64,000 nucleotides of DNA, from positions 672,001 through 736,000 of the forward strand of contig CAVRVY010000001.1 in the NCBI GenBank assembly GCA_963724765.1, in the 5' to 3' direction. The DNA comes from an uncultured delta proteobacterium (lineage in GTDB: Bacteria > Desulfobacterota > Binatia > Binatales > Binataceae). Both the position numbers and the translations under genes were made by a program. The notes beneath the pieces were generated by a model, which was not told the DNA's origin, did no database searches, and worked only from the letters and a program-made list of their open reading frames with translations. Below are positions 4,920 to 39,430 of this stretch, piece by piece; the stretch's first letter is position 1; each line of letters starts with the position of its first letter.

Positions 4920-5255
4920 GTGCAGATCGATGCAATCGCTGCGGTTTGGCCCTACGCGGCGTGTGTTTATAAGAATACCACAACGCACGTTATAAGTAAA
5001 TTAAGCAATTATTAAGAGACTATAAGCCGCGCGTCCGAATTCGATCGCGCTGCGCTGTATCTGACCACCTGTCTCTGGAACAAACCACTTTACTATTTGA
5101 CGGGACTTCCCTTTCAAGGCGATTCGCTTGGCGGATGACAACTGTACGCTGGCGCACCGTCGCGCCACGGCCATGTCGCACTCCAAGGCATCGCTCTTGC
5201 TCCCCTTGAGGGAAGGGTAGATGCGGGCATTTTGCGCACTGCGGCTATCGCAAAA

Positions 5256-30326: not shown

Positions 30327-30968
30327 TCAGGCGGCCGTGTACTGGTCAACTGGAAACATCAGGCGACCGCGCAGGATCGGTACGCACGCAGGTGGAAAGT
30401 CCTGCACGATTTCGCCCCCCGCGTCGCGCAGGAGCCCGATGAAGCGCTCAAGATGGAGCATCGCGCCGGTCGGCAGGTCATGCAGCACGACCACGCTCCA
30501 CGACGTGGCGCAGCACTGCACGAGCGCCCGCTCGACCCATCCGTGGGGGTCCTCCCAATCGCGCGGGACGCAATTCCAGAGCACGCAGGTGAAGCCGCCG
30601 GCGCATAGGTAGTCGACCACCTTGCGATTGAGCAGGCCCGAATCGAGCGCGCCGCCGCCGCCGAAGGGGCGGAAGAGTCGGTCGGGATGCGCGAGCGCGC
30701 CGAGCATCCGCTGGGCGCGGCCGATTTCGTCCTCGGCGCCGTCGTGGTCTTCGCGCCGGCCGAACGGCTTCGTATGGGTCAGGCTGTGATTGCCGATCCA
30801 GTGGCCTTCGGCGTGAGCCCGCTCCGCACGCGCGCGGCGCTCGGGGTCGCCGAGCTTCTCTCCGATCACGAAGAAGGTCGAGCGCACATCCGCGGCGCCG
30901 AGCACGTCGAGGACCTGGGCGGTCACTTCGGGCTCGGGTCCGTTGTCGAAGCTGAGCGTGATTTTCAC
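30327..30968 (-). CDS. Polysaccharide deacetylase (NodB/CE4) family protein
   Basis: 'LSFDNGP', 'TFFVIG', 'GNHSLTH', 'FRP.G', 'RDW', 'VLHD'. Confidence 0.88.
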   Translation of the reverse strand: MKITLSFDNGPEPEVTAQVLDVLGAADVRSTFFVIGEKLGDPERRARAERAHAEGHWIGNHSLTHTKPFGRREDHDGAEDEIGRAQRMLGALAHPDRLFRPFGGGGALDSGLLNRKVVDYLCAGGFTCVLWNCVPRDWEDPHGWVERALVQCCATSWSVVVLHDLPTGAMLHLERFIGLLRDAGGEIVQDFPPACVPILRGRLMFPVDQYTAA

Positions 30969-31063
30969 TTCACTTCGACCATCCTTGACGCCGGTTCCGC
31001 CGGGCGTCACGCCCCCCCGGCATCGCGCGGCTCGTGTTTGGCGCTCGGCGGCGCTCGCCCCGT

Positions 31064-31183
31064 CTACTTCTTTTGTTCCATCGGGGCGCCGCAGCACTTG
31101 AGCGCGCCCGCGCCGCCCTTGGTGACGATTACCTGCGAGCCGCACTTGCCGCAGATGTAAACTTTTCCGAGCTGATTAGCCAT
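31064..31183 (-). CDS. Desulforedoxin-like 39-aa metal-binding protein (copy A; not in the ORF track)
   Basis: Hand translation MANQLGKVYICGKCGSQVIVTKGGAGALKCCGAPMEQKK*. CxxC-x15-CC matches desulforedoxin spacing. GGAG RBS upstream. Confidence 0.88.
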   Translation of the reverse strand: MANQLGKVYICGKCGSQVIVTKGGAGALKCCGAPMEQKK

Positions 31184-31230
31184 CGTTGTTGGTTGCTCCG
31201 TTAAGTTGATGTGATGCGCCGCGCACAGCC

Positions 31231-32025
31231 TCAGGCGCCGCGAAACAGCGGCTTGCGCTTGTCCAGGAAGGCCCGTACGCCTTCGGCGCGGTCGGCTGTG
31301 GTTTGTAGCAAGGCGTACAGATCCTCTTCAAGCCTTATACCTTGATCCAGGGTCAGGTCGTATCCCTTGCGCACGGCTTCCTTGGCCAGACGCGCGGCGA
31401 CCGGGCCGCGGCTGATGACTGCACGCACGACTTCGGCGGCCACGCGTTCGAGCGCGGCGCGGCCGGTTGCGGCATAAGTCACGAGCCCCACGCGCAGCGC
31501 CTCGCCGCCATCGATCGTCGCGCCGGTCAGCAGCAGCCGGAGCGCATGGGCCGCGCCGATAAGCCGCGGCAGGCGCTGGGTGCCGCCAAAGCGTGGCAAC
31601 CGGCCGCGCCCGAGCTGGCTCATCGTGAAGCGCGCGGATCGCGCTGCGACGCGAAGATCCGCCGCGAGCGCCAGTTCCATCCCTTCATCGGCGGCGACGC
31701 CGTCGATAATCGCCAGCGTTGGCTTGGCGAGCACCGCGATCGATTCGACCACCATCGGCACAATCGAATCGACGTCATCGTCGAAGCCCGCGCAGAAGTT
31801 GCCGCCCGCGCCGCGAATCACCAGCATCAACGCGTCCGCGTCGTCTTCGACCTCCTCGGCTAGCTCGACCAGCCTGAGCGCCATCGCGGCATCAAGCCGG
31901 TTGCGCGCGGCCGGCCGCACGAGCGTCGCGGTGACGCATCCGCCGGCGCGCGCGACTTCGACCTGGCCGGCCGCGGCGCGCGCCGGACGCGGGCGCTCAG
32001 GGCTGCGGCGTGTCGCCCTTGTCAC
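31231..32025 (-). CDS. Enoyl-CoA hydratase/isomerase (crotonase) family protein with a degenerate active site
   Basis: 'NFCAG', 'KPTLAIIDG', 'GGTQRLPRLIG', 'EGVRAFLDKRKP.F.G'. The canonical GGG and PE motifs are replaced by 'DEG' and 'SQ'. Confidence 0.88.
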   Translation of the reverse strand: MTRATRRSPERPRPARAAAGQVEVARAGGCVTATLVRPAARNRLDAAMALRLVELAEEVEDDADALMLVIRGAGGNFCAGFDDDVDSIVPMVVESIAVLAKPTLAIIDGVAADEGMELALAADLRVAARSARFTMSQLGRGRLPRFGGTQRLPRLIGAAHALRLLLTGATIDGGEALRVGLVTYAATGRAALERVAAEVVRAVISRGPVAARLAKEAVRKGYDLTLDQGIRLEEDLYALLQTTADRAEGVRAFLDKRKPLFRGA

Positions 32026-33550
32026 GCAGCTCCTTGCGAAGGATTTTGCCGAGCGGATTCTTGGGCAGCGCCTCGATGAACTCGATCGCCTCGGGCCGCT
32101 TGAAGCTCGCCAGACGCGTGCGACAGAACTCGCTGATGTCGGCCGCGGTGACGTTCTGCCCCGGCCGCGGGACGACGAAGGCCTTGACCGTCTGTCCCCA
32201 TTCGACCGACGGCACGCCGATCACCGCAGCCTCGTCGATCGCCGGATGGCTCATCAGGACGGCTTCGATCTCGGCGGGCGCGATATTTTCGCCGCCGCGG
32301 ATGATCATGTCGTCCTTGCGTCCGGCGAAGAACACGTAGCCCTCTTCGTCGATCCATCCAAGGTCGCCGGTCGCGCGCCATCCCTCGGGCAGACGGGAAT
32401 CGTCCTCGCGTCCGGCGTAGCCCTTCATGATGCGCGGGGTGCGGATGAGGATTTCGCCGATCTGGCTCGGCGCCAGCAGGTTGCCCTCGTCGTCGCGCAC
32501 GGCGACCTCGACGTCGGGCAGCGGGCGGCCGATCGAGTTGAGCCGCTTGAGCTTCAGCTCGACGGTTTTGCTGTCGCCGTCAATACGATGGTCGTCGGGA
32601 CCGAGCACGGTCAACGAGGAGGTGGTTTCGGTCTGGCCGTAGGCGTTGACGAAGCCGACGGTTTTGGGGAACGCCTCGATCGCGCGGCGGATGGTCTGAA
32701 TCGGCATCGCCGCGCCGCCATACGCGAGATTGGTAAGGCTCGAGAGATCGGTGTTGGCGAACGACGGCTCGTCGAGCAACTGCTTCATCATCGTCGGCAC
32801 GACGAAGGCGTGCGTGACCTTCTCGCGCGCGACCAGTTGCAGCCAAGTCTTCGGATCGAACTGCGGCATCACCACCATCCGCCGCCCGGTCCACAGGTTG
32901 GTCATCATCGCGGTGGTTCCAGCGATGTGGTAAAACGGCACGCACACTAACGCGACGCCGCGATCGCTGCCGTCGGCCATCTCAACGTTGGCCGTGACGT
33001 AGGCGGCGAAATCGCGAAAACGCAACATCACGCCCTTGGGCAGCGAAGTCGTGCCGCTGGTGTACATCAGCACCGAGACATCCTCGTCGTCGACCTCGAC
33101 TTCGCCCTCATCGACCTCGGCTGCCTTGGCCAGGTCCGCGAGCCGCGGCACCCCGGCCTTGCCCTCGCCCCAGGCCACCACCTTGGCGGTATTGAGCTTG
33201 GGCGACACGCGCGCCATGAGGTCGAGGTAGCGGTCGCCGGCCAGGAGCACCTTGGCCCCGGCGGTGTTGATCATGTACTCGAGCTCGGCGTCCTTGGCGC
33301 GGTAGTTGAGCGGCAGCCAGGTGAGTCCGGCCTTGGCAGCGGCGTAGTAGCCGGCGATGTAGTTGTCGGAGTTGGTGTCGAGCGCGGCGATTATGTCGCG
33401 AGGTTTGAGCCCGAGCGTCTTGAAGGACGAGCTCAGACGCCCGACCAGTTCGTTGAGTTGCGCGTAGTTGAGCCTGCGATCGCCGAAGACCAGGATTTCC
33501 TGATCGGGAGCGATCGAGCCCGGGATGCTGATGAAACTGACGGTGTTCAC
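31997..33550 (-). CDS. Long-chain acyl-CoA ligase / AMP-binding enzyme
   Basis: 'YTSGTTSLPKG', 'AYGQTET', 'TGDLG', 'GRKDDMIIRGGENI', 'LPKNPLGK'. Confidence 0.95.
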   Translation of the reverse strand: MNTVSFISIPGSIAPDQEILVFGDRRLNYAQLNELVGRLSSSFKTLGLKPRDIIAALDTNSDNYIAGYYAAAKAGLTWLPLNYRAKDAELEYMINTAGAKVLLAGDRYLDLMARVSPKLNTAKVVAWGEGKAGVPRLADLAKAAEVDEGEVEVDDEDVSVLMYTSGTTSLPKGVMLRFRDFAAYVTANVEMADGSDRGVALVCVPFYHIAGTTAMMTNLWTGRRMVVMPQFDPKTWLQLVAREKVTHAFVVPTMMKQLLDEPSFANTDLSSLTNLAYGGAAMPIQTIRRAIEAFPKTVGFVNAYGQTETTSSLTVLGPDDHRIDGDSKTVELKLKRLNSIGRPLPDVEVAVRDDEGNLLAPSQIGEILIRTPRIMKGYAGREDDSRLPEGWRATGDLGWIDEEGYVFFAGRKDDMIIRGGENIAPAEIEAVLMSHPAIDEAAVIGVPSVEWGQTVKAFVVPRPGQNVTAADISEFCRTRLASFKRPEAIEFIEALPKNPLGKILRKELRDKGDTPQP

Positions 33551-34380
33551 AGTACTCCGTTTCCTCCAGGGCGGCGCGCCCTCTTGGGGGCGGACATGGC
33601 CGCCGGTGCTCGCTCTTCGAGCCTTAGATTTTCGAGCCTGCGTGCGAGCCGACGCTCCATCGCCAGCCCTTCATTGAGCGGCAGGTCCAGGCCGTCCCAG
33701 ACCGCCAGCTTCGCCATCGCAACCCGCTCGCGCGGCAAGCGGGCCAGGCGGCGTGCCAGCACTCCGGCCGCGCGCATCAGCGCCGCGCCAGGCACGACTT
33801 CGGCGACCAAACCTATTGCTAAAGCCTCCTTTGCGTCAATCCAACGGCCCGTCAGGCAAAGATCGAGCGCCCACCCGGGTCCCAGGCGGCGCGAGGCGGT
33901 CTGCGTGCCGGCCACTCCGGGAATCATTCCCAGCCCCGTTTCGGGCAGGCAGAACGACGCATCATCGGTTGCGATTGCGATATCGCACAGCAGCATCATC
34001 TCGAGGCCGCCGCCCACCGCGTAGCCGTGAACCGCGGCGACGGTCGGGATTGTCAGCGCGCGCAGCCGGCCCCATACGTCACGCCGAAAGCGGACCCATC
34101 GCGCGACCGTCGGCGAGGGCGCAGTGCCGAACTCGCTCACGTCGCCGCCGGTGGAGAACGCCGGACCTGCGCCGGAAAGCACCATCGCGCGGACTTCGGG
34201 ATCGTCGTGGATAGCACTGAGCGCGCCGAACAGATCGTCGCGCATTGCCACGTTGTAGGCATTGAGCTGGCGCGGCCGGTTGAGCGTTATCCATGCGATC
34301 CGGTCGCGCTTTTCGAAACGAATCGTGCTGAAGCCCGGCGACGGGGGCGATGGGCGGATGGCATGCGATGATTGCGCCAT
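33547..34380 (-). CDS. Enoyl-CoA hydratase/isomerase family protein
   Basis: 'ITLNRP..LNA', 'AFSTGGD', 'AVGGGLE', 'F.LPE..LG.IPG'. Both catalytic Glu positions are present. Confidence 0.92.
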   Translation of the reverse strand: MAQSSHAIRPSPPSPGFSTIRFEKRDRIAWITLNRPRQLNAYNVAMRDDLFGALSAIHDDPEVRAMVLSGAGPAFSTGGDVSEFGTAPSPTVARWVRFRRDVWGRLRALTIPTVAAVHGYAVGGGLEMMLLCDIAIATDDASFCLPETGLGMIPGVAGTQTASRRLGPGWALDLCLTGRWIDAKEALAIGLVAEVVPGAALMRAAGVLARRLARLPRERVAMAKLAVWDGLDLPLNEGLAMERRLARRLENLRLEERAPAAMSAPKRARRPGGNGVL

Positions 34381-34413
34381 GGGAGCGATGACCGCGCGAG
34401 CGGACCGGCGGAC

Positions 34414-35967
34414 TCAGGCGGAGAACAAGTCTGCGCCGGGGCTGGCCGCGACCTCGGGGCGCCCGCGCTCGAAGATAACGCGTCCGCCGACGATCGTGAT
34501 ATCGACCGGCAGGTTCATCAGCTCGGCGGGCTTGAGTGCCATCGGACCGCGCGGCAGCACCATAAGGTCGGCAAGGCGCCCGAGCGCGATCTCGCCCGCT
34601 TCAAGCCGGGCCAGGCGGGCCGCCTGCGTGGTGAAGAGCCTGAAGCCCTGCTCGATCGAAATCCGTTCGCTAAGGGAGATTTCGTAGCCCTCGATCGAAA
34701 CGCGCATCGCGGCGGCGGCGATCGCGGCCAGCGGCCGCGCCGGCGTGACCGGCGCGTCGGTGGCGCCGGCGATCTCGAGGCCGGCCTCCAGCAGGCTTCG
34801 CGCCCGATACAGGTAGGGCAGCAGGCCCGGCTCGGTGACGTACTTGGCGCCGCGATAGTAGGAGAAGCCCGGGTTGGTCACCACCCACGCGCCCAAGGCT
34901 TTGAGGCGCTCGAGATGCTCCGGCGTGATCACACCGCCATGCTCGATACGAAAAAACGGACCGCCGTCGAGCGCGGGCGACATCCCACGCGCGGCGGTCT
35001 CCAGCGAGTTGAGCGCGAGTTCGAGTTCTTCGACCTCGGTGCAATGGAAGGCCGAATCGAGTCCGGCCTGGCGCGCCCGCGCGACCCATCGCGCGATCGG
35101 GCGATAGTCGGTCTGGGGACTCTCGACGAACTTGACCGCGGCGAGCGTGATCCCGGCCGGCTGCGCGGCCCGCGCCGCCTCGGCAAGGGCGTCCAGGTAG
35201 GGCGCGCCAAGCATCATCGCCACCCGCTGCGTCACGGCGCGCCCGCTCACCAGCCGCGCCATCAGCGCGACTTCCTCGGGGCCGTTGCGCACGGTCGCGT
35301 CGGTGAACGCGGTGACGCCTGCGGCGGCCAGTTCGCGACTGAACAGACGCGCGCGAGATTCCAGCTCGGCCGGTGTGACGCGCGGCAACCGCCGCGAAAT
35401 ATAGCTTTCCATCCCGGCCACCAGACCGCTTAGCCGGCCCGTGGCGTCGCGCATCAGGACGGCGCCTTCGGGCGGCTTGAAGTCGGGCGCCTCGAGACCG
35501 AGTGCGGCGATCGCGCGCGAGTTGAGCCACGAGGCATGAAGTGTCTGATGGCGCAGACGGAGCGGATTCTTGGGCACCGCCGCGTCGAGTTCCGCGCGGG
35601 TGGGTCCGCGCCGCCCGGCGAGCAGCGCCTCGTCGCATCCGAACGCGCGCAGCCAGTTGCCCGGCGGCGTCTTGCCCGCGGCCACGCGCAACTCCGCCAT
35701 CAGGTCGTCGAGCTGGCGGCATCGCCACAGACTAAGCCCGGCCGCCGCCGACGCGGCCTCGAGGAAATGGAGATGCGAATCGATCAGGCCGGGCGCGACG
35801 ACGCGTCCGGCGAGCCGAATCAGATGCGTGCGCGGGCCGACCAGCGGCTTGAGTTCGCTATACGGCCCGAGGGCGAGGATGGTGCCCCCGGCGACCGCAA
35901 TCGAATCGCCGCCGGGATAGCCCAGGATCACTCCTTCATGCAGAACCAGGTCAGCCTTGAGGGCCAT
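34414..35967 (-). CDS. YtcJ-like amidohydrolase (Amidohydro_3)
   Basis: 'PGLIDSHLH', 'PTRAELD', 'H..WLNS.A', 'FHC', 'RIEH', 'TDAP', 'G.LADL.VL'. Confidence 0.92.
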   Translation of the reverse strand: MALKADLVLHEGVILGYPGGDSIAVAGGTILALGPYSELKPLVGPRTHLIRLAGRVVAPGLIDSHLHFLEAASAAAGLSLWRCRQLDDLMAELRVAAGKTPPGNWLRAFGCDEALLAGRRGPTRAELDAAVPKNPLRLRHQTLHASWLNSRAIAALGLEAPDFKPPEGAVLMRDATGRLSGLVAGMESYISRRLPRVTPAELESRARLFSRELAAAGVTAFTDATVRNGPEEVALMARLVSGRAVTQRVAMMLGAPYLDALAEAARAAQPAGITLAAVKFVESPQTDYRPIARWVARARQAGLDSAFHCTEVEELELALNSLETAARGMSPALDGGPFFRIEHGGVITPEHLERLKALGAWVVTNPGFSYYRGAKYVTEPGLLPYLYRARSLLEAGLEIAGATDAPVTPARPLAAIAAAAMRVSIEGYEISLSERISIEQGFRLFTTQAARLARLEAGEIALGRLADLMVLPRGPMALKPAELMNLPVDITIVGGRVIFERGRPEVAASPGADLFSA

Positions 35968-36061
35968 CAGGGTATTAATCGCCGGAGCATCGAGGGCGAA
36001 GAGAGCAACCGCGAAGCATCCTCGCTTGTAGCCCGGACTCTAGCCAGACCTTGACCGGACT

Positions 36062-36205
36062 CTAGTCCGAGGACGGAAGCGCCTTGGCTTCCTTAATTTT
36101 CATTTCCGCCTCGCAACACTCGATCGCGCCGGTGCCCGGCTTGTTGCACAGCACCTCGGTGCCGCACTTCTCGCACAGGTAACGCTTGCCCAATTGGTTA
36201 GCCAT
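36062..36205 (-). CDS. Desulforedoxin-like 47-aa protein with a C-terminal KEAKALPSSD tail (copy B; not in the ORF track)
   Basis: Hand translation MANQLGKRYLCEKCGTEVLCNKPGTGAIECCEAEMKIKEAKALPSSD*. GGGAG RBS upstream. Paralog of 31064-31183. Confidence 0.9.
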   Translation of the reverse strand: MANQLGKRYLCEKCGTEVLCNKPGTGAIECCEAEMKIKEAKALPSSD

Positions 36206-36340
36206 CGTTGAATACTCCCATGATCGTCGCCAGCCGTTGCCGGTCCGGTGGTGAAATTCGTCTGAGGACCGCTGGCTGAAAATTCAAGCCGTATGGTCCC
36301 CGGCACTTCTTTAGAGCATCGGACGCATTTCTTCAATCAG

Positions 36341-37468
36341 TTACTTCATCAATTGCACCGGTTGTGCGTCGCTTGCAAACGGCAGCTCGCTCACTGCCGC
36401 CGCGAGTTCGCCGTCCGCGTCATCGATACGCACCACCGCGCCCGGCGTCCATGCGCTGTGATGCAGGATCGCGAGGGCGAGCACGCCGAGCCGTGGCGAG
36501 CGGAGCGGGCTCGTGAGACGGCCGACCTCTTTGCCCGCGAGCATCACGCGCGCGTCGGCGGCCGGAACGCGGTCGCCTTCAATCCTGAGCCCCATCAGCC
36601 GCCGCTTCAACGCGCCGCGCGCGGTCGCCCGCTCGACGGTTTCCTGCCCGATGTAGCATCCCTTGTTGAACGAGATCGCCGGTTCCATCCGTGCTTCGAG
36701 CGCGATCGTTTTGTCGTTGGTGTCGACCCCGACCCGTGCAGTGCCGCTCTCGACCCGCAGGATCTCGGCCGCTTCGATACTGATCTCTCTGACTTCGCAC
36801 CGGTCTTCGCGGCGAATTTCGCCGTGCTCGCCGCCCGCCGCGACCAGCCGCGCAACGATTTCTGGCGCGCTCTCATGCCGGGCGAGAATGGTGAAAGCCG
36901 GCGCGTCCCATCGCGTCACCTGCGCGACCAGCGCGCCTCCCTCGGCCTCGCCAAATCGCCACGCGCCGGTGAGCGCCGCCGGCTCGCCCAAAACCGCGGC
37001 TACCGCTAGCGCCGCGTGCGGCCCGTCTATTTGAATCACGTCTATTTGAATCACGTCCTGCTGAATCACGTCCTGGACCACGCCGTCGTCAACAGCGCCG
37101 CCGCTTTCTTCCAACTCGACGTCGTCGGCGACCAGGAAGCGCTCGAGGTGGGCGCGCACGGCCGGCCACAGCGAGCGTTCCATTTCGAGCAGCAGTGCGT
37201 CGGCGGTGGCCCACACGTTCGCCTCGGCAATCAGATGGGCGCGCTCGGTCAGGAACAGCGCCGCGACGAGGTCGCCCGGCTTGAGTCCTTTGATGTCGTT
37301 GCTGCACATCCCGTGAAGGAATGACGCGCGGTCGTCCCCGCGCATTCGGATAATGACGCGCTCGGCGCACAGCCGCACGCCCGCGCCTTCCGTGAGCGCG
37401 CGGTAATCGGCCTCAAGGCCGCCGGTGGCGTGGCGCTCTGGCGCCATCGTGGAACTGATGTAGTCCAA
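36341..37468 (-). CDS. ygfZ: YgfZ/GcvT-family folate-binding protein (Fe-S cluster maturation/repair)
   Basis: Signature 'KGCYIGQE' and 'G.DRASFLHG..SND'. The start may be ATG 37448. Confidence 0.9.
   Translation of the reverse strand: MDYISSTMAPERHATGGLEADYRALTEGAGVRLCAERVIIRMRGDDRASFLHGMCSNDIKGLKPGDLVAALFLTERAHLIAEANVWATADALLLEMERSLWPAVRAHLERFLVADDVELEESGGAVDDGVVQDVIQQDVIQIDVIQIDGPHAALAVAAVLGEPAALTGAWRFGEAEGGALVAQVTRWDAPAFTILARHESAPEIVARLVAAGGEHGEIRREDRCEVREISIEAAEILRVESGTARVGVDTNDKTIALEARMEPAISFNKGCYIGQETVERATARGALKRRLMGLRIEGDRVPAADARVMLAGKEVGRLTSPLRSPRLGVLALAILHHSAWTPGAVVRIDDADGELAAAVSELPFASDAQPVQLMK
37024..37082. repeat. 15-bp in-frame tandem repeat inside ygfZ (3 copies plus a partial)
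   Basis: CGTCTATTTGAATCA x2, CGTCCTGCTGAATCA, CGTCCTGGACCA. Encodes VVQ-DVIQQ-DVIQI-DVIQI-D. Confidence 0.85.
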
Positions 37469-37574
37469 TTTCTGATTCGACTCCCTGCCAATTCGGCCGT
37501 CGCCGGCCCTGACGATTCCAATTCTATCATCGCCGGGGATTGCGTATACTGTTCCCGGAGGCGCGAAACGTCCT

Positions 37575-37718
37575 ATGGGTACATTTGTTTTCGGACTTGT
37601 AGTGGGGTTCGGCGCGGCGCTTGCGTTCTTCGTCTACGACGAGGGCGAAGTCTTTCTCAACCTGTCGCGGCAAATCAAGCTGGTCGCCGGCAAGTACAAG
37701 CAGGAGCATCGCGCGTAA
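37575..37718 (+). CDS. 47-aa single-TM small protein (not in the ORF track)
   Basis: MGTFVFGLVVGFGAALAFFVYDEGEVFLNLSRQIKLVAGKYKQEHRA*. GGAGG upstream. Ends 29 bp before the next gene. Confidence 0.7.
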   Translation: MGTFVFGLVVGFGAALAFFVYDEGEVFLNLSRQIKLVAGKYKQEHRA

Positions 37719-37747
37719 CCGGGCACCGTCGCACGGGGGACTTTTTG

Positions 37748-39430
37748 ATGTTCCGGCGGACGAGAGAGCCGGCTGCTGGCGCGCCGGTGCGAGGGCGTCG
37801 CCGCTGGCAGCGAGCGCAAAAGGGCGCCCTGCTCGGCGCTCTTTTGTGTGGGATGGCGTGTGCGATTATTCCCGCGGCGCGCGCCGCCGATGATCCCGGG
37901 GGCGCCTCTGCCGCACTCAGCAACCAGGCCTTCGCGCTGCTGAACTCGCTGAATGCGCCGGACGCCGACGGTAACGCGAACCCGGGCGCCAAGGCGCTTT
38001 TGGGACCGGTCGCGAGCTTCGCCGGTGATGCGCAGACGCTCAGCCAGGCGCTTGGCGCCGGTGACAATGCCGGCGCGCGGCGCGCCACGGCCTCGCTTGA
38101 CGCCGACGCCGCGTCGGTTGACGCTGCGCTGAAAACGCATGGCGGGGCGATTAAGGCGGATCGATGGGACGCGCTCAAGCAACAGCTCGCCGCGATCGAA
38201 AAGAGCGTTCCACCTGCGCCTGCATCCGCCGCGCCTGCATCTGCCGCGCCGCCCGCATCAGGCGAGCCCGCAAACGCGAGCGCGGCGGCCGCTCCAGGAG
38301 CGGCTCCGGTACCGGCGCCGGCAGCGGACAGCGCCGCGGCGCCGAGCGCGCCCGCGCCTGGGGCTGCGGATAGCGGCGGACCCACGATCAAGATTGAGTC
38401 GCGCAGCGTGGTCGGCGACGTTACATATCTGAAGGGATACTTCGAAGGTTCCGCGCTCCAGTCGGCCGGCATCTACGAAGGCGCGCAGAGCGTCAAGCCG
38501 ATCAAGGTGGACGACGTGATCGGGCGCCAGAAGGTTGAATTCCAACTTTCGCTGCGCGACGCCGATATTGCGACCAACCTTCGCGTCATCGACCAGGCCG
38601 GGCGCGTAGCGACGGCCTCCGTCTTCGCTGAGGACTCGACGGCGATGGCAAGCACTGGCACGGAATCGGGAGTCGAGGTCGACCGCGGCGCCGGCTCAAC
38701 CTCCGGCAGCAACACCGCCGAGATTCCGAGCGCGAGCGCGTCATCTCCTGGCATGGGTGAGGGTGGACCGGAGGAGTCGGCGCCGGGCGCGGATGAAGGC
38801 CTGGGCAGCGCCGGCATAGGCGGCGGACTCGTTGGCGGCGGGCTGGGCGGAGGAATCGGCGCTCCGATCGGTAACGTCCAGATCAACATCGAGGCGGTAA
38901 ACCCGGTGAACCCGCTCTCGCACGTCTACCAGGTGGTCGGTCAGATAATCGGACACGGCGTGCATGCCGCGGGAATCTATGTCGACGGCCGGCTGGTCAA
39001 GCGACTACCCGTCAGCCGCGGCGCCAACGTGAGTAACTTCCACACGACCTTCATGATGAACGGCGGCACGGCGACGATTCGCGCGTTTAGCGAGGGCAAT
39101 CAGTACGTCGAGACGTCGATCGCGATGCCGCCGGCGGTGGCGTCGGCGCCGCCGATCGTGGTCGCGCCCTATGGGATGAACCCCTACAGCCCGTACCCGA
39201 TGGATCCTTACGGAGGTCTTTACGGCAGTCCTTATGGCGTCCCGTATGGAACTCCTTACGGCGCGAGCCCTTCCTACGGCTACAACATCAGCCCCTACGG
39301 AATCACGCGCTACCCGATCAGTCCGTACGGCGCGAGTCCGTATGGTGCGGTTCCGTTCGGCGTCAACCCGTATGTCACGCCGATCAATCCCTACCGCAAC
39401 GCGCTGCCGATGGTCCCCTTGGGCCGCTAA
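37748..39430 (+). CDS. Secreted hypothetical protein with low-complexity linkers and a Pro-Tyr-Gly repeat tail
   Basis: Signal ending 'AARA', helical domain, two similar beta domains ('AGIYEG', 'AGIYVDG') and a PYG-rich C-terminus. Confidence 0.8.
   Translation: MFRRTREPAAGAPVRGRRRWQRAQKGALLGALLCGMACAIIPAARAADDPGGASAALSNQAFALLNSLNAPDADGNANPGAKALLGPVASFAGDAQTLSQALGAGDNAGARRATASLDADAASVDAALKTHGGAIKADRWDALKQQLAAIEKSVPPAPASAAPASAAPPASGEPANASAAAAPGAAPVPAPAADSAAAPSAPAPGAADSGGPTIKIESRSVVGDVTYLKGYFEGSALQSAGIYEGAQSVKPIKVDDVIGRQKVEFQLSLRDADIATNLRVIDQAGRVATASVFAEDSTAMASTGTESGVEVDRGAGSTSGSNTAEIPSASASSPGMGEGGPEESAPGADEGLGSAGIGGGLVGGGLGGGIGAPIGNVQINIEAVNPVNPLSHVYQVVGQIIGHGVHAAGIYVDGRLVKRLPVSRGANVSNFHTTFMMNGGTATIRAFSEGNQYVETSIAMPPAVASAPPIVVAPYGMNPYSPYPMDPYGGLYGSPYGVPYGTPYGASPSYGYNISPYGITRYPISPYGASPYGAVPFGVNPYVTPINPYRNALPMVPLGR

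Follow-up and report, generated by a model that had tools for sequence, protein, structure and literature searches.

What does a protein of only 47 amino acids (aa) do beside a set of acyl-coenzyme A (CoA) enzymes, and why does it end so exactly in the residues LPSSD? The question is raised by a stretch of 64,000 nucleotides from an uncultured delta proteobacterium of the family Binataceae (Desulfobacterota; Binatia; Binatales; assembly GCA_963724765.1, contig CAVRVY010000001.1, positions 672,001 to 736,000), which is referred to below as the window and in which positions are counted from the first letter. The minus-strand open reading frame (ORF) 36062-36205 encodes a small, cysteine-containing protein, here called copy B (MANQLGKRYLCEKCGTEVLCNKPGTGAIECCEAEMKIKEAKALPSSD); a shorter relative, copy A, is encoded downstream on the same strand (Table 1). 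An earlier note on this DNA had proposed that the C-terminal tail of B is a substrate-carrying arm of the LysW type. On the evidence given below, we see about an even chance that A and B instead constitute a non-catalytic partner of a ligase/crotonase module, in which the free SSD-COOH end of B is a docking element.

The alignment of A with B is ungapped over 39 residues (56% identity, E 1e-15), and B is therefore longer by exactly 8 residues, in agreement with the extension of about 8 residues reported in the earlier note. The LPSSD-stop end and the fifth cysteine (within VLCNK) described there were also found in the ORF. B contains five cysteines, namely C11, C14, C30 and C31, which form a CxxC...CC set, and the additional C20. 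A and B are the sole two genes of this kind in the 5.4-Mb genome. The end of A is fixed too: Q37, K38 and K39 are invariant in 34 A sequences, whose consensus end is MEQKK.

A search for homologues close in length to B yielded 106 proteins (25-83 aa), 101 of which end in the pattern [LVIM][PA]x[SAT]D (LPSSD in 93, LPSAD in 6, LPASD in 1 and LPTSD in 1). Of the five that deviate, one is of the A type, one is a fragment of 30 aa, and the other three have, respectively, an end that resembles a frameshift, two additional residues and a different C-terminal portion. C20 is present in 105 of the 106 homologues. An alignment of 46 split-type B proteins, i.e. those encoded separately from A (46-48 aa, from 96% down to 60% identity to B), revealed eleven invariant columns: G6, R8, C11, C14, L19, C20, C30, M35, L43, P44 and D47. 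The terminal residues, whose invariance the earlier note had named as a check, are thus conserved both in the split forms (L43, P44 and D47) and in the fused forms described below (Pro and Asp in 99 of 99).

We also compared the codons of the tail in 81 distinct DNA versions of the B gene, comprising that of the window and those of 80 genome loci. The latter were the best 80 of the 571 related loci reported by a genome scan; by title, they belong mostly to Binataceae or Binatia where the lineage is named, and many others are labelled uncultured delta proteobacterium or Proteobacteria. Six codons are used at L43 (80 Leu, 1 Val) and four at P44 (all Pro). S45 and S46 are each specified by all six Ser codons, of both the TCN and the AGY type, with Ser throughout; both Asp codons occur at D47, always encoding Asp, and all three stop codons follow it. 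Since synonymous codons have turned over at each position of the tail while the residues have remained constant, selection acts on the peptide and not on the DNA. The tail, including its exact end, is under purifying selection at the protein level, and its conservation goes far beyond chance.

With regard to its fold, A is by score a member of Pfam family PF06397 (Desulfoferrod_N/desulforedoxin; 36.1 bits, cut-off 23). B matches the same family with 20.1 bits (E 5e-4), which is under the cut-off, and many B homologues have a precomputed PF06397 match; this was the only family listed when A and B were scanned against Pfam at E≤0.01. The best matches of B among PDB sequences were desulfoferrodoxin and desulforedoxin (E 0.014-0.047). 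In the AlphaFold2 model of B, the mean predicted local distance difference test score (pLDDT) was 80.6, and that of residues 41-47 was 59. Foldseek aligned this model with desulforedoxin (1dxg_A) with a probability of 1.00, E 0.024, a TM score of 0.81 on the target and a root mean square deviation (rmsd) of 1.2 Å over 33 columns (36% identity), and its search of the PDB with the B model gave no row at E≤0.001. The Cys4 pattern CxxC...CC occurs in B, with C11, C14 and C30 invariant in the 46 B sequences and C31 replaced by D, E or H in some of them. According to its modelled fold and its ligand pattern, B is a divergent relative of the desulforedoxin-fold proteins, without clean membership by score. 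The Cys4 sites of A and B in the window probably bind a structural metal.

The earlier note had also mentioned hypothetical proteins of roughly 100 aa, ending in (K/Q)PLP(S/A)SD and encoded next to ligase/crotonase genes in other phyla, and had supposed them to be fusions of A and B. This proved correct: such proteins form a large family beside ligase/crotonase genes, in records of Actinomycetota and Pseudomonadota. A profile search of 1.84 billion cluster representatives produced 1303 matching representatives at E≤1e-3, and 554 at E≤1e-10. Among 145 newly listed representatives, 105 have a length of 100-109 aa and 142 end in x[SAT]D; the last five residues are LPSSD in 101, LPASD in 29, LPTSD in 3, LPSAD in 2, LPKTD in 2 and others in 8. 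Most of the newly listed representatives consist of an A-like half and a B-like half and have lost the majority of the metal cysteines; homologues of about 100 aa with these two halves and few cysteines still end in KALPSSD. Literal A-then-B fusions, in which both Cys4 sets are kept, exist as well: P0107 (92 aa, ending in PLPSSD) and P0122.

When 99 fused forms (34-61% identity to the first sequence) were aligned, just four residues proved invariant: Arg within a GKRY block, a single Gly, and the tail residues Pro and Asp. The GKRY block itself is nearly invariant (G 98, K 98, R 99 and Y 97 of 99). Counting the terminal Asp as position -1, the tail has Leu at -5 in 97 of the 99 sequences; S (77), A (17), T (3) or K (2) at -3; and S (96), T (2) or A (1) at -2. 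The position of the fifth cysteine is occupied by C in 68, by V in 27 and by other residues in 4, so that this residue, which is invariant in the 46 split-type B proteins, is not shared by the whole family. Most fused forms keep only 2-3 cysteines, and the function of the family therefore cannot depend on a Cys4 metal centre.

The model of a fused protein of about 100 aa had a pLDDT of 93.9 (about 80 in the tail) and a predicted TM score (pTM) of 0.83, and its C-terminal half could be superimposed on desulforedoxin 1cfw_A with Z 3.5 and an rmsd of 1.0 Å over all 36 residues. Foldseek found nothing in the PDB at E≤0.001 with the model of the fused protein, and the best match of the fused-family profile to PDB sequences was at chance level only (E 0.22). 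Neither Pfam nor NCBIfam has a model for the fused family. In the ESM Atlas it appears only as unnamed 'hypothetical protein' clusters, whose few members with a record come most often from Actinomycetota. The fused gene is likewise annotated as 'hypothetical protein' in three plasmid loci (see below) and in other annotated plasmid records. Carriers in the records of Actinomycetota and Pseudomonadota include Rhodococcus, Mycobacterium, Streptomyces, Sphingomonas and Sphingobium, and many soil bacteria encode members of the family next to a ligase of one clade. Full-text literature searches found no paper on the fused family.

Three proteins of unusual architecture were encountered. In P0116 (408 aa, from one metagenome contig), B reads past LPSSD into the Amidohydro_3 protein as a single ORF, whether because the stop codon was lost or through an error of assembly; it is the sole case seen of an internal tail. 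P0144 (122 aa) is the only representative with reversed halves, B-like then A-like. Its internal B tail is degenerate (PVPSG...) and its end is MELKK, as in A, in keeping with retention of the tail solely where it forms a free C-terminus. P0150 (234 aa) carries a 2Fe-2S ferredoxin-like part ahead of the two-half mini-protein, the only hint of a redox link found.

The genes that accompany B in the Binatia were surveyed in the 64 loci with at least 5.6 kb of sequence downstream of B; these loci are kin, and the counts describe a stable synteny rather than independent events. An upstream-type crotonase, a ligase and a downstream-type crotonase were each found in 60 of the 64 loci and A in 59, and in 57 all four follow B in the order crotonase-ligase-crotonase-A. 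An amidohydrolase is also located after B in 57 of the 64, being missing from the more divergent Binatia loci. Upstream of B, a YgfZ/CAF17-like gene is present in all 79 Binatia loci with enough upstream sequence. In the window, the cluster containing B is probably co-transcribed; a promoter/terminator scan indicated no terminator on the minus strand after B and no promoter-like site. Of 21 sequencing runs listed in a search for expression data, none was recorded as RNA.

Table 1. Features of the B/A gene cluster (positions within the window).
Feature	Position	Strand	Basis or remark
Copy B, tail-bearing desulforedoxin-fold mini-protein, 47 aa	36062-36205	minus	ORF; PF06397 20.1 bits; 106 homologues
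Ribosome-binding (Shine-Dalgarno-like) box GGGAG	36215-36219	minus	9 nt before the ATG of B; read from the sequence
Tail KEAKALPSSD, residues 38-47 of B	36065-36094	minus	LPSSD 36065-36079; stop codon 36062-36064
Fifth cysteine C20 (VLC/VLCNK) of B	36146-36148	minus	beside C11, C14, C30 and C31
Copy A, canonical desulforedoxin-type mini-protein, 39 aa, presumed other half	31064-31183	minus	PF06397 36.1 bits; 56% identity to B
AMP-forming acyl-CoA ligase (ANL superfamily)	31997-33550	minus	AMP-binding and AMP-binding_C domains
Crotonase (enoyl-CoA hydratase family), upstream copy	33547-34380	minus	ECH_1 2.6e-52
Crotonase, downstream copy	31231-32025	minus	ECH_1 3.5e-38
Amidohydro_3 metal hydrolase, accessory cluster member	34414-35967	minus	PF07969 7.8e-69
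YgfZ/CAF17-like folate-binding protein, directly upstream of B	36341-37468	minus	GCV_T domain; TIGR03317 76.6 bits (cut-off 49)

Outside these loci, A and B were compared in six genomes from other families of the same GTDB phylum (L170-L172 and L174-L176). Four of the six have the arrangement crotonase-crotonase-ligase-A-B, with A and B in tandem and a ligase 45-47% identical to that of the window. L174 contains two crotonases followed by tandem A-B, with no ligase match, and in L176 a ligase and an extra copy of A lie about 2.3 kb before the tandem A-B. In a seventh locus, L173, the sequence ends just beyond A. The tails in these loci are PVPSSD, PLPSSD, PLASSD, PMASSD or KKPSSD, only SSD-COOH being constant. 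Amidohydrolase matches in L170 and L173 are only partial (32% identity, opposite strand), and no YgfZ-like gene was seen beside the A/B loci of these other families.

The surroundings of the fused form were examined by a metagenome scan with a 12-sequence alignment, which reported 562 loci, of which the best 80 were kept. According to tblastn, a ligase 36-43% identical to that of the window adjoins the fused gene on the same strand in 47 of these 80 loci, the implied gap between the two genes ranging from -9 to 70 bp in 45 cases and measuring 171 and 236 bp in the remaining 2. When only loci with 500 bp or more visible on both sides are considered, such an adjacent ligase is present in 33 of 51; for those with 500 bp or more downstream, the figure is 43 of 67. 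Pfam revealed AMP-binding genes in two more loci (L127 and L154) that tblastn had missed, which brings the loci with a ligase to at least 49 of 80. In all three annotated plasmid loci (Mycobacterium branderi, Sphingomonas paeninsulae and Rhodococcus sp. DK17), a ligase gene labelled 'class I adenylate-forming' or 'fatty acid-CoA ligase' is located 11-59 bp from the fused gene, and the other genes around it encode crotonases, CoA-transferases, acyl-CoA dehydrogenases and thiolases. Fused-form loci that lack an adjacent ligase have as neighbour an acyl-CoA dehydrogenase, a family III CoA-transferase, a short-chain dehydrogenase/reductase (SDR) or a 3-hydroxyacyl-CoA dehydrogenase. The window's own class also contains a fused form, L177 (G143:C8; ORF from locus position 5051, minus strand), a protein of 97 aa with one cysteine and no metal-ligand set, which ends in PLPSSD.

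Four of the metagenome loci (L096, L097, L103 and L104) share a longer arrangement, in which an acyl-CoA dehydrogenase gene is followed by the fused gene and then, in order, by an opposite-strand SDR gene, an ORF without a Pfam match and a gene for a molybdopterin-binding (xanthine-dehydrogenase-family) subunit. Their fused proteins are nearly identical, and they represent one lineage.

The ligase of the window retains the standard acyl-CoA-synthetase motifs, including the C-terminal PxxxGK lysine; its nearest NCBIfam model is PRK06187 (467 bits, cut-off 476). A maximum-likelihood tree was constructed from 34 enzymes of the ANL superfamily, comprising 28 ligases associated with the mini-protein (11 beside split forms, 16 beside fused forms and 1 lying 1.5 kb from a fused form) and 6 for comparison: (i) four paralogues from the genome of the window, (ii) the second ANL gene of the Rhodococcus locus and (iii) an ANL gene lying on the opposite strand in L151. 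A single branch separates the full set of 28 associated ligases from the others (ultrafast bootstrap (UFBoot) 100, Shimodaira-Hasegawa-like approximate likelihood ratio test (SH-aLRT) 98, 100% of 200 bootstrap trees). As judged from these sequences, the ligase lineage is co-inherited with the mini-protein, and the tree speaks to this co-inheritance alone. We further identified 21 ligase positions, including R84, R223, H321 and R322, that are conserved in at least 27 of the 28 partner ligases and in at most one of the 6 others; with 6 outgroup sequences, these serve as a lead only.

Taken as a partner of this ligase, the pair can be pictured as follows. A would be the canonical half and B the specialised, tail-bearing half, the two being paired as halves of a desulforedoxin-like dimer. 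We infer this pairing because the genes occur in tandem, because literal fusions exist and because the fused fold has two halves. Desulforedoxin of Desulfovibrio gigas (Dx) is a redox-active homodimer with Fe bound in a distorted tetrahedral Cys4 site; its two subunits would here be replaced by unlike halves or by a single fused chain. In other lineages, A and B are encoded by tandem genes or occur together in a fused protein of about 100 aa. The pair would be dedicated to one clade of AMP-forming acyl-CoA ligases, usually accompanied by two crotonases. Its hallmark, (L)(P)-S/A-S-D-COOH, ends exactly at Asp, so that the free alpha-carboxylate and the Asp side chain would be presented together. 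Most probably, this end would dock, without a covalent bond, in a pocket of the ligase itself or of its assembly with a crotonase, the partner reading both carboxylates. The mini-protein would then be a factor for activity, stability or hand-over, much as the MbtH-like proteins are for the adenylation domains of nonribosomal peptide synthetases (NRPSs). Docking into a crotonase, which the earlier note had suggested, appears less likely than docking onto the ligase, because the ligase persists where crotonases are not seen nearby.

Several observations weigh against a dedicated partner of the ligase. No experiment or model places B in contact with any enzyme; when the complex of A, B and the window ligase was predicted with a separate alignment for each chain, both runs, made without control runs, scored 0.18, against a mark of 0.32, which speaks neither for nor against binding. 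The pLDDT of about 80 for the tail of the fused model suggests that the tail may pack on its own domain instead of forming a free arm. In the Binatia, 3-4 genes separate B from A, and B is fixed beside ygfZ, which a partnership with the ligase leaves unexplained; moreover, the counts from the Binatia lack independence, these loci being kin. Where both flanks of a fused-form locus are visible, an adjacent ligase is absent in about a third of cases; 7 loci of one lineage directly follow an acyl-CoA dehydrogenase gene and others adjoin family III CoA-transferases, and L177 has no ligase match within about 4.5 kb. Finally, the outgroup of the ligase clade consists of 6 sequences only, which are placed on long branches.

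Some of these observations would also suit an alternative in which the tail serves within the mini-protein itself, for structure or for ligand binding, and is paired for instance with GKRY. The mini-protein would then either regulate the pathway or bind CoA, an acyl-CoA or the acid substrate as a small-molecule ligand, with no docking of its tail into the ligase. GKRY is the other near-invariant block of the family, and its basic character is complementary to the acidic SD-COOH; the tail pLDDT of the fused model and the loci that lack an adjacent ligase agree with this picture as well. However, the tail is of low confidence in the model of B alone, and the co-inheritance of the ligase clade with the mini-protein argues for a protein partner. 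We regard this alternative as rather unlikely.

The carrier arm proposed in the earlier note deserves separate consideration. In a generalised form of this idea, the ANL ligase would adenylate the carboxylate of the terminal Asp or acylate the penultimate Ser, and the crotonases would act on a protein-tethered intermediate. An exact Asp end with a hydroxyl residue at -2 (S in 96 and T in 2 of 99) is what a chemically used terminus would be expected to look like, and the small gene is tightly coupled to that of an adenylate-forming enzyme, at gaps of -9 to 70 bp. A precedent is provided by LysW, for which PMC12998189 describes a tiny metal-ribbon protein that carries intermediates on its C-terminal residue, a Glu to which the substrate is attached. 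LysW and other amino-group carrier proteins resemble B in being tiny, Cys-rich metal ribbons with a conserved acidic C-terminus, encoded together with the enzymes that they serve. They differ from it in ending in a Glu whose side chain carries the substrate (Asp in B, 46 of 46 split and 99 of 99 fused forms), in being paired with an ATP-grasp ligase, LysX/ArgX, and with lysZ/Y/J/K-type genes in place of an ANL-type enzyme, and in their fold; the neighbours of B, in addition, are CoA-dependent.

The identification of B as LysW-like was not upheld. The LysW model TIGR01206 had no match at E≤1 in the whole 5.4-Mb genome, A and B included, whereas it matched in 10 of 14 control genomes, in 3 of them above its cut-off. 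A Pfam scan of the eight ORFs in 30327-37468 detected AMP-binding, ECH, Amidohydro_3, Polysacc_deac_1 and GCV_T domains and no ATP-grasp domain of a LysX-type ligase, the rest of the genome not having been searched for LysX. To these findings are added the desulforedoxin fold and the terminal Asp, which is not Glu.

Even as chemistry independent of LysW, a covalent arm is improbable. The standard acyl-CoA-synthetase motifs of the ligase and its CoA-dependent neighbours (crotonases, acyl-CoA dehydrogenases and CoA-transferases) lead one to expect free CoA thioesters, and ANL enzymes are not known to adenylate the C-terminus of a protein. The Ser at -3 is replaced by Ala, Thr or Lys in 22 of the 99 fused forms and so cannot be an obligatory acylation site; the Ser at -2 (conserved in 96) and the terminal Asp (in all 99) are possible sites. 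That B and its relatives represent a new, widespread carrier system, combining a desulforedoxin fold with an acyl-CoA-synthetase-type enzyme in parallel to LysW/LysX and ThiS/ThiF and unrelated to both, strikes us as distinctly improbable. Sulfur carriers of the ThiS/MoaD type have a C-terminal Gly-Gly and a beta-grasp fold, neither of which is found in B, with its Ser-Asp end and desulforedoxin fold.

It is highly improbable that A and B are free electron carriers, i.e. desulforedoxin-type Fe(Cys)4 proteins that feed a redox enzyme of the pathway: the CxxC...CC set kept in both proteins of the window, the 2Fe-2S ferredoxin-like N-terminal part of P0150, the ferredoxin genes near the fused gene in L083 and L085 and the 7 fused-form loci that follow an acyl-CoA dehydrogenase would suit such a role, but most fused forms have 2-3 cysteines (those adjacent to an acyl-CoA dehydrogenase only 2, and L177 one), some split B forms have D, E or H in place of the second Cys of the CC pair, the core neighbours in the window (ligase, crotonases and hydrolase) are not redox enzymes, and a strictly conserved C-terminal peptide is not needed by a carrier of this kind. 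Three further candidates were rejected: a DNA- or RNA-level element underlying the tail (by the synonymous codon turnover), a sortase-type or secretion signal (by the cytosolic context of CoA metabolism and the position of the motif at the extreme end) and a precursor of a ribosomally synthesized and post-translationally modified peptide (RiPP; by the lack of maturation enzymes and the presence of a folded domain).

A non-catalytic partner with a docking tail, as we propose for A and B, can be set against several known systems. Desulforedoxin (1dxg/1cfw) and the N-terminal domain of desulfoferrodoxin have the small fold and the CxxC...CC pattern in common with B. Dx has about 36 aa and no tail, to which B adds an extra Cys and a conserved 8-residue C-terminal extension; unlike desulforedoxin, the B family is heterotypic or fused, occurs in the context of acyl-CoA enzymes and has lost the metal ligands in most of its fused members. 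MbtH-like proteins are non-catalytic proteins of about 70 aa, encoded beside ANL adenylating enzymes and needed for their activity or solubility; they have conserved Trp residues, no metal site and no conserved C-terminal peptide. They offer a functional analogy to A and B only, with no relation in sequence or fold (PF06397 being the only Pfam match of A and B).

DUF35 proteins (about 130 aa) combine a rubredoxin-like Zn ribbon with an oligonucleotide/oligosaccharide-binding (OB) fold and scaffold thiolase-type enzymes. As proposed for A and B, they are small metal ribbons that act as non-catalytic partners of acyl-CoA enzymes in similar catabolic clusters, but they lack the SSD tail. A gene for an 'OB-fold domain-containing protein' adjoins that of a thiolase in L083. 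As to the mode of recognition, the C-terminal EEVD-COOH of Hsp70 and Hsp90 is bound by the 'carboxylate clamps' of tetratricopeptide repeat (TPR) proteins. The analogy is mechanistic only, concerning a recognition peptide that ends in Asp with both carboxylates read; the proteins are unrelated, and no TPR protein was seen here.

Some features of the genes surrounding the cluster were also recorded. The YgfZ/CAF17-like family has been linked to the maintenance of Fe-S clusters. The ygfZ-like ORF of the window contains, at about 37016-37080, a short repeated stretch (VVQDVIQQDVIQIDVIQID) with the appearance of a small tandem repeat kept in frame; around this stretch, the tblastn matches of YgfZ in related loci are often incomplete. 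A 666-aa ORF (37430-39430, plus strand), Ala/Pro/Gly-rich and with a C-terminal run of PYG-like repeats, is oriented divergently from the ygfZ-B cluster, and many Binatia loci have a homologue (30-82% identity) at the corresponding position. After A lies an ORF of the polysaccharide-deacetylase family (30327-31145, minus strand), which, with the GTG start listed for it, overlaps A at its end. The deacetylase similarity in related loci usually begins about 40-50 bp beyond A; in L004 and L042 it extends into the end of A. The true start of this ORF is therefore probably located further downstream.

The mini-proteins described here have a known fold in a new, uncharacterised role. They are encoded by genes of only 39 and 47 codons, and their large fused family is represented by no Pfam or NCBIfam model. 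If the tail were used covalently, it would constitute a new carrier-protein chemistry. If, on the other hand, A and B are an obligatory partner of the ligase, the catabolic ligases of this clade may be inactive or insoluble when expressed alone, as are NRPS adenylation domains without MbtH-like proteins, and the family would show the fold of a redox protein put to new use in an adaptor free of metal.

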